A DNA stretch of 64,000 nt from Candidatus Nomurabacteria bacterium (GTDB lineage: Bacteria > Patescibacteriota > Minisyncoccia > Phycocordibacterales > UBA918): assembly GCA_023898585.1 (NCBI GenBank), contig CP060229.1, positions 247,707-311,706 of the forward strand, read 5' to 3'. The notes under the pieces were generated by a model. The model was given only the letters and a program-made list of their open reading frames with translations, was not told the origin of the DNA and searched no databases. The position numbers and the translations under genes are program-made. Positions 35,164 to 61,407 of the stretch are shown here, in pieces (within the stretch, counting starts at the first letter, position 1; each line of letters opens with the position of its first letter).

Positions 35164-35207
35164 CTAGCACAAGAAAACCGGCCTCTTGCCGGTTTTCTTG
35201 TGCTAGC
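35164..35207 (+). terminator. Perfect 19-bp hairpin right after tRNA-Gly, shared with the tRNA-Pro locus
   Basis: CTAGCACAAGAAAACCGGC-ctctt-GCCGGTTTTCTTGTGCTAG. Confidence 0.6.
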
Positions 35208-35214
35208 AGGTTGA

Positions 35215-35290
35215 AGTGAGCAAACTGCTTTGCTCATGTGAGGAATCGAAGGACGGAACGATGTGAGGAAGAATGACGAACGAGCGAGTC
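35215..35290 (+). repeat. Conserved tRNA-downstream element, copy A
   Basis: AGTGAGCAAACTGCTTTGCTCATGTGAGGAATCGAAGGACGGAACGATG... is close to 53792-53842. It contains the hairpin TGAGCAAA-ctgc-TTTGCTCA and an inverted T-loop-like GGAATCGAAGG. Confidence 0.7.
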
Positions 35291-35330
35291 GGGGTCGAGA
35301 AAAATTTTCGCAGAACATTTATTCGTGACA

Positions 35331-35349
35331 GATTCCTCTCATCCACACC
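35331..35349 (+). repeat. Degenerate direct copy of the tRNA-Gly(UCC) 3' end
   Basis: GATTCCTCTCATCCACACC versus the tRNA 3' end GATTCCTCTCACCCGCACT. Confidence 0.5.
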
Positions 35350-53245: not shown

Positions 53246-53491
53246 GACTCACCCTCGCTTTTTTTTAACAGGAGTGTTATATTTTGCTGACTTAAATCAC
53301 GTTTGTGGTTTTTGTTTGGGTGATCGGGGTGTATCTTCGACTGCGGGCTCGATACATTCCCTCTTTGTTCGGTCATGGTGTGCTATGCAAGCGTAGCTTG
53401 CATCAAGAAATTTTTACCGAGAAGCCGTAAGCAAGCTTCCGCTGCTCGGGAAAAATTTCTTGACTTCTGCACACCACGACGCTCACGACAT

Positions 53492-53533
53492 CGGGGTGTA
53501 GCATAATGGTAGTGTACGCGGTTTGGGGTCTGT
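53492..53533 (+). repeat. 5' fragment of tRNA-Pro (about 42 nt, diverges after the anticodon loop)
   Basis: CGGGGTGTAGCATAATGGTAGTGTACGCGGTTTGGGG, then unrelated sequence. Confidence 0.6.
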
Positions 53534-53562
53534 CCTTTCAATTTTCATATTTTTGGCTACGT

Positions 53563-53633
53563 CGGGGTGTAGCATAATGGTAGTGTACGCGGTTTGGGAC
53601 CGCGCGGCCCGGGTTCGATTCCCGGCTCCCCGA
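53563..53633 (+). tRNA. tRNA-Pro (anticodon UGG); U6-U67 mismatch and two G-U pairs in the D stem
   Basis: CGGGGTG-TA-GCAT-AATGGTA-GTGT-A-CGCGG-tTTGGGa-CCGCG-CGGC-CCGGG-TTCGATT-CCCGG-CTCCCCG-A. The architecture parallels E. coli tRNA-Pro(UGG). Confidence 0.7.
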
Positions 53634-53704
53634 CGTAGCCCGAAATGGAAATTGAAAGAATTGACCAACAAGCTGGGAGCTTGTTGTGGCTTCGAAGAAG
53701 GCGT

Positions 53705-53733
53705 GGCCCGGGTTCGATTCCCGGCTCCCCGAC
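53705..53733 (+). repeat. 3' half copy of tRNA-Pro (T arm plus acceptor 3' strand)
   Basis: GGCCCGGGTTCGATTCCCGGCTCCCCGACA. Confidence 0.7.
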
Positions 53734-53736
53734 AAA

Positions 53737-53778
53737 CACAAGAAAAGTCAGGTTTATTTATTCCTGGCTTTTCTTGTG
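53737..53778 (+). terminator. Hairpin related to the one after tRNA-Gly(UCC)
   Basis: CACAAGAAAAG-tcaggtttatttattcctgg-CTTTTCTTGTG. Confidence 0.5.
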
Positions 53779-53791
53779 GTAAGGAGGGACT

Positions 53792-53842
53792 AGTGAGCAA
53801 ACTGCTTTGCTCACGTCGGGAATCGAACGGCGGAGCGATGAG
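53792..53842 (+). repeat. Conserved tRNA-downstream element, copy B
   Basis: AGTGAGCAAACTGCTTTGCTCACGTCGGGAATCGAACGGCGGAGCGATGAG versus copy A at 35215. Confidence 0.7.
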
Positions 53843-53911
53843 TTTACGAACAAGTGAGCCGTGTCCCATGGCACCGAGTATTTTGTGGCGCTAAGGATAC
53901 AGAATACGCTA

Positions 53912-53944
53912 GTGACCGTCAGGACGATTCTCCGCTCCCCGACA
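53912..53944 (+). repeat. Degenerate copy of the tRNA-Pro 3' end
   Basis: GACGATTCTCCGCTCCCCGACAAATG. Confidence 0.5.
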
Positions 53945-54008
53945 AATGAAAACCTGCTTGAATAACAAATTCATGCAGTTTTTCGTTATAATTCAAAAAT
54001 TGTGAGCC

Positions 54009-54322
54009 TTAGATTCCCAAATCAGACAACACCTCCTCAAAAGTATCCAGACGAGTTACATGCGGGTGAAAATGAAAAACTGTTAGATTGTTATACTCAC
54101 CAATTGCGTAGACCTTGGCATTATTTGATAACGCGGCCCCCATTTCAACAAACATTCCTGTCCCTGACTTATCACCAAGTATAATAAACACATCAGCGTC
54201 TCTTGCTCCAGCGATATCATTTTCAGCGAATTCCTGAACCTTCTCTAAATGATCCTCATACGGCCTTTTTACATCCGCACCTTCTACCGCAGTCCAATCG
54301 TGAGTACATTCATGACCTTTTT
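54009..54322 (-). pseudogene. N-terminally truncated nucleoside 2-deoxyribosyltransferase-like gene fragment
   Basis: The frame ...VEGADVKRPYEDHLEKVQEFAENDIAGARDADVFIILGDKSGTGMFVEMGAALSNNAKVYAIGEY... has no ATG start and is opened by an in-frame TAG. The track ORF begins at an internal GTG. Confidence 0.45.
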
Positions 54323-55143: not shown

Positions 55144-55370
55144 GTTTAACGACTTTGATATGTTCCACGTGAAACGTCAAATATTTATTTCTAGTATTTG
55201 TTTCATGTGAAATACGGCCTTAATTATAGCAGTATCGTATAAAGGACACTAGGGTTTGAAAAGTGTGGATTGTCCTTTATCCCCATATCAACTGGTTATC
55301 CACAGTTATTAACATACGAAAAACACCTAGTAGGGGTGTCTTTCGTATTTTGTTGAGGCGTCATTATTTG

Positions 55371-55568
55371 TGCGGGTAGGGGTAATCGAAACCTGACGGT
55401 CTCTAAATTCACCCCAAGGGCACTTCCAACGACTTTGTCGAAGGGGCGCGCCACTCATTAAGAGCCGCGGGTCACGCCTCGACTGTCGTACTCTCTTCGC
55501 TCCGTGCGACATGTCTCCGGCGGTTTTGATTACCACGAAAGGTGCGCAGGCACCTTTCTCCTACCCGC
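55371..55568 (-). ncRNA. tRNA-Gly(GCC)-derived structured element of about 198 nt (tRNA 5' and 3' ends flanking a hairpin-rich insert); interrupted pseudo-tRNA or tRNA-like RNA
   Basis: On the minus strand it starts GCGGGTAGG (the tRNA starts GCGGGTATAG) and ends CAGGTTTCGATTACCCCTACCCGCACA (the tRNA ends GGGGTTTCGATTACCCCTACCCGCACCA). The insert contains AAAGGTGC-ctgc-GCACCTTT and CGAC-aaa-GTCG hairpins. Confidence 0.45.
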
Positions 55569-58027: not shown

Positions 58028-58210
58028 GCTGTCATTGTATCAGAAATCTGAACGATAAAAGCACCTAATTAGGCGCTTAAATCATGTGTGCACCTGCCAG
58101 GACTCGGTCACAAGTCGCTCCCTTCAGTCGCGCTCGCGACCCCGCCTCCTTACGCTTCACTCCAGTCCGGCTTTCGAGTTTGCCCCCAACAATGCGAGAC
58201 CAAACTAAAA

Positions 58211-59934: not shown

Positions 59935-61407
59935 ATGACCATCAAGCCGACTGACATTCCAATGGAAGTAAAGCAAGTGGCGGAAACCTTGGAAAAGGCC
60001 GGTTTTGAGGCGTATGTGGTCGGTGGCTGTACGCGCGACCTGATGCTGGGGAAGACGCCGAAAGACTGGGACCTGACCACCAACGCACATCCGGAGCAAA
60101 TCCAAGAGCTTTTTCCAGACCACTACGCCAATAACGATTACGGTACCATCGGGATAAAGACTGAGTCAGAAAATGATGCTTTGAAGGTAATTGAGGTCAC
60201 TCCCTACCGCAGAGAAAGTGGATATAGTGACGCCAGAAGGCCGGACGAAGTAACTTTCGGTGTCTCGTTGGAAGAGGATCTCAAACGCCGAGATTTTACC
60301 GTCAATGCCTTAGCATATCGCATTTCAACCGAAGAATTGGTGGATAATTTTGGTGGGGTAGAAGATCTCGTTGCTAAACGTCTTAAGGCAGTCGGTAACC
60401 CCGATGAACGCTTTGCCGAAGACGCGCTTCGCATGTTGCGGGCGGTACGCCTCGCGGCCGAACTCGACTTTGTAATTGAGTCTGAAACCATGCTAGCAAT
60501 TACCCGTCATAACCAGCAATTAAGCCGTATTTCCATCGAAAGGGTGGCTAGTGAGTTTCTTCGCACTGTTAATTCTCCAACTTCTATGCAGGGTATCGTC
60601 TTCATGGAAAAACTGGGTCTGTTGGAGCAGTTTTTGCCAGAACTGCAGGAAGGAATCGGGGTAGAGCAGGGAGGAGCTCACGTTTACGACGTATTTGAAC
60701 ACCTTTTGCGCACCATGCAGGCGGCCACTGATAAAGAATTTTCGCTTTCGATGCGCCTGGCGGCACTCTTTCATGACATTGCCAAGCCGACAACGCGACG
60801 GACTGGTGGCAAACACAAACACTATACTTTTTTTGGCCATGAAGTGGTCGGAGCCAGAATGACTAGGGAAATCATGGGTAGATTAAAGATGCCTCGCGAG
60901 CTGACTGGCGAGGTGGTCAATCTGGTGCGCTGGCACATGTTTTTTGCCGATCCGGACGAAATCACTTTGTCGGCCGTAAGGCGAACCATAGTAAGAATCG
61001 GCGAAGACCATATCGAAGACCTCCTAAACCTGCGCGTATGCGACCGGATAGGCATGGGCCGACCTAAGGAACAGCCGTTTCGCTTCCGCAAATACAAGGC
61101 GATGGTGGATGAGGCGCTTCGTGAACCGATTTCAGTGAAACTCTTGAAAATAAACGGTGACCGGATTATGGAACTGTCTGGCGAGAAGCCGGGGAGGCGA
61201 CTTGGCTATATTTTGCACGCTCTTTTGGAGGAAGCACTTGATGACGCTAGCAAGAATACGATGGAATATATGGAAAAACGGGCGCTGGAATTGCTTGAAT
61301 TACCGGAAAAAGAGCTGATCGAACTGGCGGAGGCTGGTAAACGCCGGCAAGCAGAGGGGGAGGAATCGGCTTTAAAGGACATCGCTCGCGAGCATAAGGT
61401 GGGGTGA
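59935..61407 (+). CDS. cca: CCA-adding tRNA nucleotidyltransferase (class II, with HD domain)
   Basis: GGCTRDLMLGKTPKDWDLTT...RRDFTVNALAY head domain and an HD motif (ALFHDIAKP). Confidence 0.88.
   Translation: MTIKPTDIPMEVKQVAETLEKAGFEAYVVGGCTRDLMLGKTPKDWDLTTNAHPEQIQELFPDHYANNDYGTIGIKTESENDALKVIEVTPYRRESGYSDARRPDEVTFGVSLEEDLKRRDFTVNALAYRISTEELVDNFGGVEDLVAKRLKAVGNPDERFAEDALRMLRAVRLAAELDFVIESETMLAITRHNQQLSRISIERVASEFLRTVNSPTSMQGIVFMEKLGLLEQFLPELQEGIGVEQGGAHVYDVFEHLLRTMQAATDKEFSLSMRLAALFHDIAKPTTRRTGGKHKHYTFFGHEVVGARMTREIMGRLKMPRELTGEVVNLVRWHMFFADPDEITLSAVRRTIVRIGEDHIEDLLNLRVCDRIGMGRPKEQPFRFRKYKAMVDEALREPISVKLLKINGDRIMELSGEKPGRRLGYILHALLEEALDDASKNTMEYMEKRALELLELPEKELIELAEAGKRRQAEGEESALKDIAREHKVG

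Follow-up and report, generated by a model that had tools for sequence, protein, structure and literature searches.

The tRNA-Pro locus described here is one transcription-unit-like block, extending from a promoter-like motif to a structured RNA named D2, in which the intact gene is nested between the two halves of a split copy of itself. The block lies in a window of 64,000 nucleotides from a Candidatus Nomurabacteria bacterium, which is the whole stretch of DNA that was analyzed. Its parts follow each other in the order promoter-like motif, leader U, outer 5' half, X, intact (inner) tRNA-Pro, X', hp1, hp2, outer 3' half, CAAA trailer, hairpin and D2. Coordinates are given as window positions, and the features are on the forward strand, except for two terminator-like hairpins, to which no strand is assigned, and one open reading frame on the reverse strand. 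X, which separates the 5' copy from the intact gene, forms about 30 bp with X', the trailer of that gene; the intact tRNA thereby caps a long helix that stands between the two halves of the split copy. The outer halves are what is left of the resident tRNA-Pro gene, whose anticodon loop is interrupted by a block of about 172 bp formed by a complete tRNA-Pro flanked by the helix of about 30 bp.

Genes for tRNAs are usually treated either as ordinary genes or as passive targets of integrases. In the present case, an essential and probably single-copy tRNA-Pro gene of a minimal genome is embedded in a conserved RNA architecture, which comprises a structured leader, a nested cassette held by a 30-bp clamp and a downstream RNA that matches the tRNA tail.

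The only tRNA-Pro(UGG) called at the locus is placed at 53563–53634 by ARAGORN (anticodon tgg) and at 53563–53633 by Infernal. The latter interval scores 62.6 bits with the Rfam tRNA model RF00005, against a gathering score of 29, and therefore belongs to the family; CCA is not encoded by the gene. A sequence-only reading of this DNA had described one full tRNA-Pro(UGG) gene with several partial copies and had proposed running tRNA finders on it. The two programs agree on the full copy and the fragments stay significant beyond chance, although their limits have to be redrawn. The outer 5' half (53492–53527) is identical to nt 1–36 of the tRNA (standard positions 1–37) at 36 of 36 nucleotides, with no matches expected from shuffled sequences, and ends directly after the anticodon and G37. 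The 5' fragment first given as 42 nt is therefore real, but its exact extent is 36 nt, or 40 nt at 98% identity when the similar 4 nt upstream are included. Likewise, the 3' half first given as 29 nt aligns over 33 nt (53701–53733, 32/33, not expected by chance); as a feature, the outer 3' half occupies 53701–53736 and comprises standard positions 41–73 followed by the native CAAA trailer. Nucleotides 38–40 are missing from the split outer copy and present only in the inner gene, as in 11 of 11 nested loci.

A third copy of the tail at 53925–53943 matches at 17 of 19 positions, or at 20 of 22 with its CAAA flank (0.01 expected by chance). This is the degenerate 3' end noted earlier, which exists but forms part of a separate structured RNA, D2. 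The supposed 13-nt 5' fragment near 53325 reduces to an 11-nt exact match to tRNA-Pro (ATCGGGGTGTA at 53323–53333), and it is a strand of leader hairpin 1 rather than a loose gene fragment. The alternative junction shared by the downstream 3' copies was correctly seen, and CAAA is the native tRNA-Pro trailer in relatives, uninterrupted genes included; in the intact gene the trailer reads CGTAGCC, with which helix strand X' begins. The U-U acceptor mismatch of the full tRNA is also there (U6·U67). Since it is common to most orthologous tRNA-Pro genes, even at loci without repeats, it characterizes the lineage and gives no indication that the full tRNA is itself a reconstituted copy. An assembly artefact can be dismissed, since three independent metagenome contigs show the identical arrangement of repeats and a fourth differs solely by a clean 71-bp deletion.

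The long helix was delineated from inverted repeats (I2 and I3 in the case of X), folding and covariation. The sequence-only reading had overlooked this X/X' inverted repeat, as it had the inverted T-arm piece at 53817–53828, the recurrence in other genomes and the place of the last copy in a separate RNA element. The 5' strand X of the helix lies at 53528–53562 and its 3' strand X' at 53634–53665; X' prolongs the acceptor stem, and its pairing includes even the discriminator base. The predicted energy of X/X' is −46 kcal/mol, compared with −19.5 ± 3 kcal/mol for shuffles, and at every nested locus it is 25–38 kcal/mol below shuffles, even though the sequences are unrelated between the two subfamilies. 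Across the nested loci, 26 of 85 pairs show double changes, a number that none of 500 shuffles reached and that collapses in slid controls; 16 of 36 pairs covary in X/X', and 6 of 8 pairs of hp1 have compensatory changes. Hp1 (53666–53686) is an 8-bp hairpin found in 11 of 11 nested loci, and its loop TGGGA (53674–53678) equals the anticodon plus nt 37–38 of tRNA-Pro. The small hairpin hp2 (53690–53700), CTTC-GAA-GAAG in the window, covaries across loci, appearing as CTCA/TGAG, CTCT/AGAG, CTTTT/AAAAG or CTTTC/GAAAG. Helix, hp1 and hp2 are kept as structure rather than as sequence in the 11 loci.

The ratio of G·U to A·C is 32:6 on the tRNA strand, which is also the more stable strand in 9 of 11 loci, and this G·U bias points to an RNA on the tRNA strand. 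When the whole block is folded as RNA (−110.8 kcal/mol, z = −4.1), the outer acceptor strands are paired around the inner tRNA. A leader–trailer processing stem is characterized by at least about 20 bp between the flanks and by covariation on the transcribed strand, and both are found in X/X', for which a processing or insulating function is predicted.

The block opens with a promoter-like motif at 53254–53283, consisting of CTCGC and a T-run followed by TGTTATATT (extended −10). Many related loci have the motif ahead of tRNA-Pro or its leader, and a promoter role can be supposed. A simple sigma-70 scan did not call it, and a simple terminator scan called neither of two hairpins at terminator positions, such consensus scans being uninformative for the motifs of this organism. 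One of these hairpins, after the outer 3' half, has 16 bp (53737–53778, inverted repeat I4, 94% complementary) and stands at the native terminator position; the other, after D2, looks like a bidirectional terminator when read from the sequence (53948–53985). Between the motif and the outer 5' half lies the structured leader U (53290–53491, inverted repeats I1 and I9), in which hairpin 1 (53325–53363) begins with CGGGGTGTA and is followed by a three-way junction (53372–53480). Homologous leaders are present in L055, L035, L031 and L032, and 28 of 56 pairs show compensatory changes in RNAalifold. A comparison of U, X-hp1-hp2 and D2 with Rfam at gathering and permissive thresholds, covering the window, the locus and eight related loci, returned tRNAs only.

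Two further genes were considered. A candidate CCA-adding enzyme is encoded at 59935–61407. On the reverse strand, an open frame without a start codon (54009–54320) was earlier taken for a truncated deoxyribosyltransferase-like gene; it does look N-terminally truncated, but its resemblance to nucleoside 2-deoxyribosyltransferases (Pfam PF05014) is weak, its 21.2 bits (E = 3e-4) falling short of the cut-off of 28.8.

Aligning the locus with those of relatives, as the sequence-only reading had also recommended, revealed the same architecture with the same junctions in at least 10 other loci of the ultra-small Patescibacteria (L013, L026, L037, L044, L050 and L057–L061). Given this recurrence, the nested layout is conserved, and probably selected or self-propagating, and does not represent random scars. 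Nucleotides 16–37 of the outer 5' half equal those of the inner gene in 10 of 11 loci, L050 having a 1-nt insertion, a figure to be read knowing that the metagenome matches were chosen by a pattern covering these same nucleotides. The remainder of the outer copy is less constant: its acceptor is mutated at six loci (L013, L026, L044, L050, L058 and L061), and at 4 of 11 its 3' half is truncated or missing (L013, L026, L057 and L061). X itself measures 43–48 nt in the second subfamily.

By flanking proteins, L055 and L035 are the closest relatives. In L055 the gene is uninterrupted and shares leader, flanks and D2 with the window, but the 71 bp and the approximately 100 bp are absent. The outer 5' half of the window carries the upstream flank seen at this intact gene. 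The population variant L003 lacks exactly the 5' half and X (71 bp); since it apparently persists in the population, X is not strictly essential. That the partial copies arose by insertion or duplication at tRNA-Pro, as was first proposed, is borne out by the native flanks of the outer copies and by the variant without one unit. Nesting is not confined to proline. In L028, a tRNA-Gly(UCC) is nested alike with an X of 19 nt; its outer halves pair with each other as GCGGGTA/TACCCGC and differ from the inner allele, GCGGGAT/ATCCCGC. The flanking-protein identities are too sparse to favor one history, and vertical descent with losses explains the distribution about as well as transfer does.

The element at the end of the block, D2, is a structured RNA of about 160 nt (53783–53943) with its own family of homologues. 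Two arms make up its closing helix: a 5' arm at 53783–53790 and 53817–53828, the latter an inverted T-arm piece (the reverse complement of T-arm and tail), and a 3' arm at 53922–53943. The farthest tail copy is therefore the 3' strand of the D2 closing helix and lies outside the cassette. Among seven homologues, 24 of 45 pairs show compensatory changes according to RNAalifold. A covariance model, R1, was built from seven sequences including the D2 of the window, so that the 141 bits scored by this D2 are obtained by construction. R1 has 24 matches in 458 kb, and all those compared with the tRNA table are directly downstream of a tRNA on the same strand; the lone exception, at the start of locus L030, is not placeable relative to a tRNA. 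Paralogues of D2 stand behind the other tRNAs of the window, each closing on the tail of its own tRNA. Together, the D1/D2 elements are structured RNAs of 110–200 nt behind tRNA genes, and tail copies occur at about 30% of the Pro, Gly and Arg tRNAs in related loci. In L026, the relic tail of another tRNA-Gly allele remains downstream of the functional gene. Many of these tRNAs have HTH and LAGLIDADG-like genes 10–90 nt upstream.

The reading that we favor, to which we give even chances, is that a cassette with a cognate tRNA entered the resident tRNA-Pro gene at its anticodon loop and that the helix of the cassette is maintained at the RNA level. The independent nested tRNA-Gly case with discordant inner and outer alleles (L028) supports this insertion. 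The tRNA halves flanking the cassette are ready homology arms, so that homologous recombination, for example after DNA uptake, could carry it into any intact tRNA-Pro gene. Scarless removal would be possible by two recombinations between the direct repeats, and the 71-bp deletion variant looks like the first step of such a removal. In the precursor, competing half-copies of the tRNA would be present, and X/X', by extending the acceptor stem, would force the inner halves to pair with each other. As the helix resembles the leader–trailer stems of rRNA operons, it might be a substrate for a double-strand RNase of the RNase III type, with finishing by RNase P, a 3' nuclease and a CCA-adding enzyme, possibly the candidate encoded in the window. 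The outer halves would be pseudogene pieces whose likeness to the inner gene is kept by gene conversion. Counting against the cassette, neither an inserting enzyme or event nor the source of X, hp1 and hp2 was found. Moreover, the inner and outer Pro copies are near-identical, which is compatible with local duplication, and the 5' unit in the window has the length of one tRNA (71 bp), as fits a tandem copy with a remodelled 3' half. The conserved outer nt 16–37 and the anticodon-like loop of hp1 are hints of a function outside the cassette model.

The sequence-only reading had instead interpreted the copies as the outcome of repeated integration and excision at this tRNA. In this scenario, integrases recombined in the anticodon loop and in the T-loop, parts of the tRNA were displaced, and the elements were deleted down to 35–180 bp. 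We regard it as unlikely. The 3' copies do begin at nt 41, in the anticodon-stem region, and at C56, in the T-loop, which are the classical integrase sublocations (Williams, 2002; Reiter, 1989), and the direct repeat of the 3' part that an att duplication would leave is present at 53701–53733 and 53925–53943. The downstream tail copies with native trailers, their frequency among related tRNAs, the relic Gly tail of L026 and the truncated gene adjoining the locus are in line with scars as well. In other genomes, a putative HNH-like frame in L026 (reverse-strand translation, by eye) and a putative transposase-like or IS-like one in L057 (also read by eye) sit exactly at the expected place of the outer 3' half. 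However, Pfam searches of the 20 ORFs at 41.7–63.4 kb (±11 kb) detected no integrase or recombinase domain, and neither viral contigs scanned with the tRNA tail and hp1 motif nor phage genomes searched with the locus by blastn provided anything relevant, apart from one jumbo-phage tRNA cluster. The 5' half is duplicated too, which integrases that restore the 3' part do not do, and the repeats are gapped, the 5' copy ending at nt 37 and the 3' copy starting at nt 41, unlike overlapping att cores with a shared sequence. Element genes are likewise absent from the inserts of 35–180 bp. Finally, 11 loci of different species have identical junctions, and the alleged remnants form helices that show compensatory changes and, on the RNA strand, a G·U bias. 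These shared junctions and covarying helices, together with the gapped repeats and the integrase-free surroundings, speak against repeated integration and excision. We also think it improbable that slippage or unequal crossing-over duplicated or triplicated the tRNA-Pro gene locally in tandem, after which the flanking copies decayed and their halves were remodelled into a helix, with neither a foreign cassette nor mobility. Such a duplication would account for the sum of 5' half and X being exactly one tRNA length, for the co-variation of inner and outer Pro copies between genomes, and, as unequal exchange predicts, for the loss of a unit in L003 and the extra X-like and X'-like flanks in L060; the end of X (GGCT) is even faintly like a tRNA 3' end. 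Compared position by position, though, X has about 31% identity to tRNA nt 38–73, which is the random level, and the X lengths of 43–48 nt and 19 nt elsewhere break the one-tRNA-length rule. The compensated difference between inner and outer alleles in L028 is not predicted by duplication, and to make a 30-bp helix from two unrelated half-genes would require dozens of coordinated changes.

The remaining alternatives give the outer halves a role of their own. We find it quite unlikely that they belong to a functional composite RNA, in which leader and trailer pieces stay paired after excision of the tRNA and act as a two-piece tRNA-like decoy, regulator or cofactor. Such a function would explain the persistence of the layout in 11 lineages, although direct repeats of 36 nt with just 35 nt between them are expected to be unstable and easily deleted, as happened in L003. 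The near-constant nt 16–37 of the outer 5' half (in pattern-selected matches), the copy of the anticodon and nt 37–38 in the hp1 loop, the paired outer acceptor strands in the whole-block fold and a weak tmRNA-model match of the trailer part (19.9 bits, E = 9e-6 locally, below the gathering score) go in the same direction. Against this, the outer acceptor and 3' half decay at the loci listed above, the arrangement is absent from the closest relatives, and gene conversion from the inner gene alone can explain the identity near the junction. As for an intron-containing or split tRNA-Pro, with the 172-nt block as an intron that encodes a second tRNA and the outer halves being spliced, we consider it highly improbable. 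The interruption immediately follows position 37, where tRNA introns of archaea and eukaryotes canonically lie, and the halves fold together in silico. Patescibacteria, besides, are rich in anticodon-loop group I introns (PMC13011429); that paper makes no mention of tRNA-Pro. But nt 38–40 are missing, two anticodon-stem pairs included, and the joined halves are not recognized as tRNA-Pro(UGG) by ARAGORN, the sole exception being a contrived join in L060. For most joins the program makes no call or places it in the wrong register, and a complete cloverleaf is not obtained. No match to group I (Intron_gpI) or to any other ribozyme appears at E up to 10, and the block minus its tRNA leaves about 100 nt, which is less than a group I core needs. 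What follows the junctions, as judged by eye, is the helix of about 30 bp with two hairpins and not a 3-4-3 bulge-helix-bulge, and the outer halves decay in several lineages.

Returning to the inserted cognate cassette, a wider proposal can be made, which we put forward tentatively and hold to be possible rather than probable: Paceibacteria-type Patescibacteria would harbor undescribed small, protein-less, RNA-structured cassettes in and behind tRNA genes, of a 'replacement' kind and of the D1/D2 kind. The 'replacement' cassette may split the anticodon loop, supply a helix-clamped cognate tRNA and use the halves as homology arms for spreading as well as for later loss. The closing helix of D1/D2 is always rebuilt from the tail of the preceding tRNA, which suggests templated, target-derived arms or tRNA mimicry. 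The HTH and LAGLIDADG-like genes might provide the nuclease that drives such exchanges. In the literature that we searched, neither the nesting of tRNA genes nor tail-matching elements were described for Patescibacteria.

Should the cassette model hold, a gene can be interrupted without loss of function, and a protein-less element can spread by homologous recombination alone with the halves of its target as arms. If instead the RNA-function models are true, tRNA maturation in these RNase-poor bacteria depends on unrecognized cis elements. Annotation pipelines will continue to report such loci as pseudo-tRNAs, spurious ORFs or integration scars. The D2 covariance models built in this analysis offer a way to chart these elements.

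Several known systems share features with the locus. The leader–trailer stems of rRNA operons are RNase III substrates, and similar stems occur around some stable RNAs. As there, a long helix of flanks encloses a stable RNA, with conserved pairing on the transcribed strand; the putative processing stem of the locus differs in enclosing a single tRNA, in continuing the acceptor stem and in lying inside a split copy. In the split and permuted tRNA genes of Nanoarchaeum, Caldivirga and Cyanidioschyzon, an archaeal/eukaryal splicing endonuclease yields the only functional tRNA. The pairing of complementary sequences that adjoin the halves and bring them together is common to both, whereas here the halves are incomplete and decaying, a full gene lies between them and the host is bacterial. 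The E. coli tyrT gene has 178-bp repeats downstream of tRNA-Tyr, each starting with the last 19 nt of the tRNA. Copies of a tRNA 3' end at least 100 nt downstream in the same transcription unit are thus shared, but those of tyrT are simple tandem units, while D2/D1 are structured RNAs with an inverted and a direct arm that stand behind different tRNAs, the arms matching the tRNA in each case.

The tRNA-like domain of tmRNA invites comparison with D2 and the trailer, since in all of them an acceptor-like helix is formed from distant strands around a structured core, with a GGAAUCGAA motif after the 5' strand and a weak tmRNA-model match. The identification as tmRNA was rejected: the scores are 19.9 and 12.9 bits against 47 (RF00023, RF04321), far under threshold, the match is driven by the T-arm and acceptor, and ARAGORN calls no tmRNA. 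The acceptor of tRNA-Pro has C1-G72, G2-C71 and G3-C70, with no G3·U70 pair. Nor is there a conserved tag reading frame; tmRNA-like coding in D2 was discarded, as by eye a short frame ending in TN(E/K) and a stop is present in some copies and a hairpin takes its place in others. D2 differs, moreover, in having no intact T-arm and a different acceptor for each tRNA.

The att duplications that integrative elements such as prophages and islands leave at tRNA genes (Reiter et al., 1989; Williams, 2002; for tRNA gene fragments, PMC9897764) resemble the locus in having partial direct copies beside an intact tRNA copy, in 3' copies that reach from the anticodon arm or T-loop to the 3' end, and in the native trailer retained by the displaced copy. 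The locus differs from them in its short inserts of 35–180 bp without integrase or element genes, its duplicated 5' half and gapped repeats, its covarying RNA insert and its identical junctions in many species, and because a whole tRNA is supplied and not just a restored 3' part. With the group I introns of Patescibacteria (PMC13011429), it shares the phylum, the site in the anticodon loop and halves that escape standard tRNA finders. It departs from them in its unjoinable exons, in an insert devoid of a group I core and in the complete tRNA that this insert contains.

The tRNA-Pro locus holds a conserved nested arrangement, in which a covarying RNA helix clamps an intact tRNA-Pro inside a split, decaying resident gene, and a separate RNA family that matches tRNA tails follows the nested tRNA-Pro. 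Four tRNAs are found in the window by ARAGORN, just one of them at this locus, tRNA-Pro(UGG) at 53563-53634, in agreement with Infernal/Rfam (53563-53633, 62.6 bits). The partial copies described by the sequence-only reading are real and far above chance, as judged by repeat matching and shuffles. The outer 5' copy (53492-53527) is identical to the gene start at 36/36 positions, with 0 matches expected from shuffles, and the outer 3' copy (53701-53733) matches tRNA-Pro at 32 of 33. In standard numbering, the 5' copy stops after G37 and the 3' copy starts at G41, nucleotides 38-40 (ACC) being present in the inner gene only and absent from both outer copies. Since the identical locus occurs in three independent metagenome contigs, all with an identical neighbouring CYTH protein, it is no assembly artefact. 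The U6·U67 acceptor mismatch, previously taken as a possible sign that the full gene had been reconstituted, loses that meaning because most orthologues have it too, with repeats or without.

X (53528-53562), the spacer behind the 5' copy, and X' (53634-53665), which trails the intact gene, are inverted repeats of one another, a relation that the first inspection had missed. In the predicted RNA fold of the block, the intact tRNA tips a ~30-bp helix that extends its acceptor stem, with the acceptor strands of the outer 5' and 3' copies paired around this X/X' helix (-110.8 kcal/mol, z = -4.1). Two small hairpins lie between X' and the 3' copy, namely hp1 (53666-53686), whose loop TGGGA equals the anticodon plus nucleotides 37-38, and hp2 (53690-53700). 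Kept in most nested loci, the hp1 loop, (C)TGGGA(G), follows the anticodon-loop pattern Y-U-GGG-A-N and equals nucleotides 34-38 of tRNA-Pro. The X/X' sequences form two mutually unrelated subfamilies with the pairing kept in every locus, and in nested loci they fold at -43 to -64 kcal/mol, compared to about -18 to -26 kcal/mol in shuffles. Among six aligned loci, both-sided changes affect 26 of 85 pairs, a level reached by 0/500 shuffles, and the signal is lost once the pairing partners are slid. They are found in 16 of 36 X/X' pairs and 6 of 8 hp1 pairs, and hp2 covaries too. On the tRNA strand, G·U pairs stand to A·C mismatches as 32:6, and this strand is the better-folding one in 9 of 11 nested loci. 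The covariation, the G·U excess and the strand folding therefore point to selection on the transcript rather than on the DNA.

A genome scan with one genome per species, in which the first 20 nt of the tRNA were the query, gave at least 50 Patescibacteria loci (MAG labels Paceibacteria, Kaiserbacteria, Nomurabacteria and 'Saccharibacteria'). Five of these have the nested layout (L013, L026, L037, L044 and L050), and another five nested loci (L057-L061) came from scanning metagenomes for the 5' junction. The junctions ...GGTTTGGG|G-X and hp2|G41... are common to 11/11 nested loci. The outer 3' half is truncated in L013 and L061 and lost in L026 and L057, six loci (L013, L026, L044, L050, L058 and L061) carry mutations in the outer acceptor strand, and joining the outer halves gives nothing recognised as tRNA-Pro(UGG) apart from one contrived join in L060. 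Given this decay and the failed joins, the outer copy is a pseudogene. Its nucleotides 16-37 equal those of the inner gene in all nested loci but L050, which has a 1-nt insertion; this conservation is partly ascertainment, as the metagenome loci were picked by a pattern covering part of that stretch. Near the junction the outer copy has probably been homogenised by gene conversion. By-eye translation gives an HNH-endonuclease-like ORF (DFHH...CANCHR) in L026, on the minus strand directly after hp2 and in place of the outer 3' half, a homologue of it in L041 about 450 nt downstream of tRNA-Pro, and in L057, after hp2 where the outer 3' half would lie, an ORF whose N-terminus is zinc-finger transposase-like. 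At L060:1030-1400, the outer halves are flanked on the outside by X-like (17 nt identical) and X'-like (about 70% identical) sequence, as though a second unit had split X-tRNA-X' or unequal crossing-over had lengthened the repeats.

A plain tRNA-Pro is found in the two nearest relatives by flanking proteins, L055 and L035, whose sigma factor is about 80% identical. When the window is aligned with L055, the leader, the tRNA and the downstream element are homologous, the extra sequence in the window being 71 bp (5' half and X) and about 100 bp (X', hp1, hp2 and 3' half). The outer halves bear the flanks (...CAT| and |CAAA) seen around the intact gene of L055, so they are the resident gene, with the block between them an insertion or its equivalent. 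The 'alternative junction' reported for the downstream 3' copies does exist, and is explained by CAAA being the usual tRNA-Pro trailer among related loci. L003, a contig of the same population from another sample, is 100% identical minus exactly the 71 bp of 5' half and X, the product expected of recombination between the 36-40-nt direct repeats; another contig, L005, ends inside the repeat. Were the 3' repeats to recombine as well, a plain gene would be left without a scar, and the nested layout could therefore be lost cleanly.

Downstream of the nested gene lies D2 (53783-53943), a structured element in which 53817-53828, within the 5' arm, reverse-complements the T-arm and tail. The tail copy itself (53925-53943, 17/19 match to the tRNA-Pro tail, 0.01 expected from shuffles) makes up the 3' arm, and the farthest 'degenerate 3' end' is thus part of this separate element rather than of the nested cassette. 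Homologous elements follow the terminators of the other three tRNAs in the window, and in each the arms correspond to the tail of the tRNA concerned, the 5' arm as its complement and the 3' arm as an identical copy: tRNA-Gly(UCC) (about 35206-35348, plus strand), tRNA-Gly(GCC) (55370-55568, minus strand, where 22 nt of tail are copied exactly, and CAAA too) and tRNA-Arg (about 58087-58200, minus strand). Tail copies of 10 nt or more follow 41 of the 134 tRNAs in related loci at a distance of 110-360 nt, and an inverted copy often lies in the interval. There are at least two element classes, D1 and D2/D3. The predicted D2 structure consists of a closing helix, a 9-bp hairpin and two more helices, with 24/45 pairs compensatory (RNAalifold, seven copies), and no Rfam family matches it. 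A D2 covariance model found 24 copies in 458 kb, three of them in the window; the model's own seed sequences account for the seven top scores, among them 141 and 137 bits in the window, and matches outside the seed set reach at most 96 bits. Of the matches compared with the tRNA table, all are directly downstream of a same-strand tRNA save one, at the start of the L030 locus, which cannot be placed. The tRNA strand folds better for 22 of 26 elements. By eye, D2 copies are more alike within a genome than at the same tRNA across genomes. In L026, the functional tRNA-Gly(GCC) gene has the tail CCCTACCCGCA; the tail kept in the downstream 3' arm, CCCTGGTCGCA, is of the type belonging to the other tRNA-Gly(GCC) allele, found in many relatives, suggesting that the gene was replaced and the old tail left behind. 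Both observations argue that the tail-matching elements are dynamic. D1, about 110 nt long and marked by the conserved motif GTACTGAAnnnGTAAnnnTTCGA, is found behind Pro, Arg and Gly tRNAs in L010, L022, L024, L025, L026, L027, L032, L035 and L050. Its hairpin overlaps the T-arm copy and covaries (GAACC/GGTTC, GAACA/TGTTC, GATCC/GGATC, GAACT/AGTTC), and D1-then-D2 arrays occur in L032 and behind the nested cassette in L050.

Upstream, a leader of about 200 nt (U, 53290-53491), predicted to form a hairpin and a three-way junction, separates a promoter-like motif from the tRNA. It is present in L055, L035, L031, L032 and other loci, with 28 of 56 predicted pairs compensatory in five species and no Rfam match. 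The 11-mer ATCGGGGTGTA of tRNA-Pro recurs at 53323; the '5' fragment' noted there supplies the first strand of U's hairpin 1 and is not a loose piece of the gene. The promoter-like motif (53254-53283), CTCGC(A/C) plus a T-run, about 10 nt and then TGnTATnnT, went undetected in a scan with the standard sigma-70 consensus; it recurs upstream of tRNA-Pro in many loci. The ORF at 59935-61407 (plus strand), with PolyA_pol head, RNA-binding and HD domains, is a probable CCA-adding enzyme, in keeping with the absence of an encoded CCA from tRNA-Pro and tRNA-Gly(UCC); tRNA-Gly(GCC) and tRNA-Arg do have CCA encoded.

The locus had been interpreted as scars of repeated integration and excision. We keep integrase scars as a rival because the 3' copies start at the anticodon arm and the T-loop, the classical integrase sublocations. 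Simple scars are nevertheless argued against by the gapped repeats, the duplication of the 5' half as well, the junctions conserved across loci and the covariation at the RNA level. Besides, no integrase or recombinase domain was found in 20 ORFs (41.7-63.4 kb), and viral contigs and phage genomes gave no relevant match to the tRNA tail, hp1 or the locus. The neighbouring ORF (54009-54320, minus strand), described as a truncated deoxyribosyltransferase-like gene, indeed has no start codon, but its Nuc_deoxyrib_tr match is weak (21 bits, below the cut-off).

Local duplication with remodelling is challenged by a nested tRNA-Gly(UCC) in a complete chromosome (L028:6192-6385), the split copy of which is a different tRNA-Gly(UCC) allele. 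Its order is a 34-nt 5' half, a 19-nt X, the full tRNA, a complementary 17-nt X', AGCAG (nucleotides 39-43), a hairpin and the tail, the hairpin standing where the outer 3' half would have its variable and T-stem region. The outer acceptor is GCGGGTA/TACCCGC, mutually compensating, the inner one is GCGGGAT/ATCCCGC, and the inner allele is similar to tRNA-Gly of other lineages. This discordance would be hard to obtain by local duplication, and speaks for a foreign cognate cassette having been inserted into the resident gene. An intron in tRNA-Pro would leave outer halves that join into a recognisable tRNA, which they fail to do bar the contrived L060 case. Integrase scars, local duplication with remodelling, the intron and a functional two-piece tRNA-like RNA share what the cassette explanation leaves. 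In the cassette explanation, the block would stem from an inserted cognate tRNA cassette, the halves of the broken gene would serve as homology arms through which it is gained or lost by homologous recombination, and the helix may hold the inner halves in register among competing copies while doubling as a processing stem. We think that this package has an even chance of being correct.

No description of the nested arrangement or of D2 was found in the literature searched or in Rfam. In its working, the nested locus is partly like an att duplication, but it fails defining tests of the att family. It would also work partly like an rRNA processing stem. The likeness to a split or intron-containing tRNA is superficial, with no group I core found in the Rfam search and outer halves that lack nucleotides 38-40. 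There is a real chance, though well short of even, that it stands for a new class of protein-less, RNA-structured, tRNA-targeting cassettes; the known parent kind of the locus is that of insertions and duplications associated with tRNA genes.
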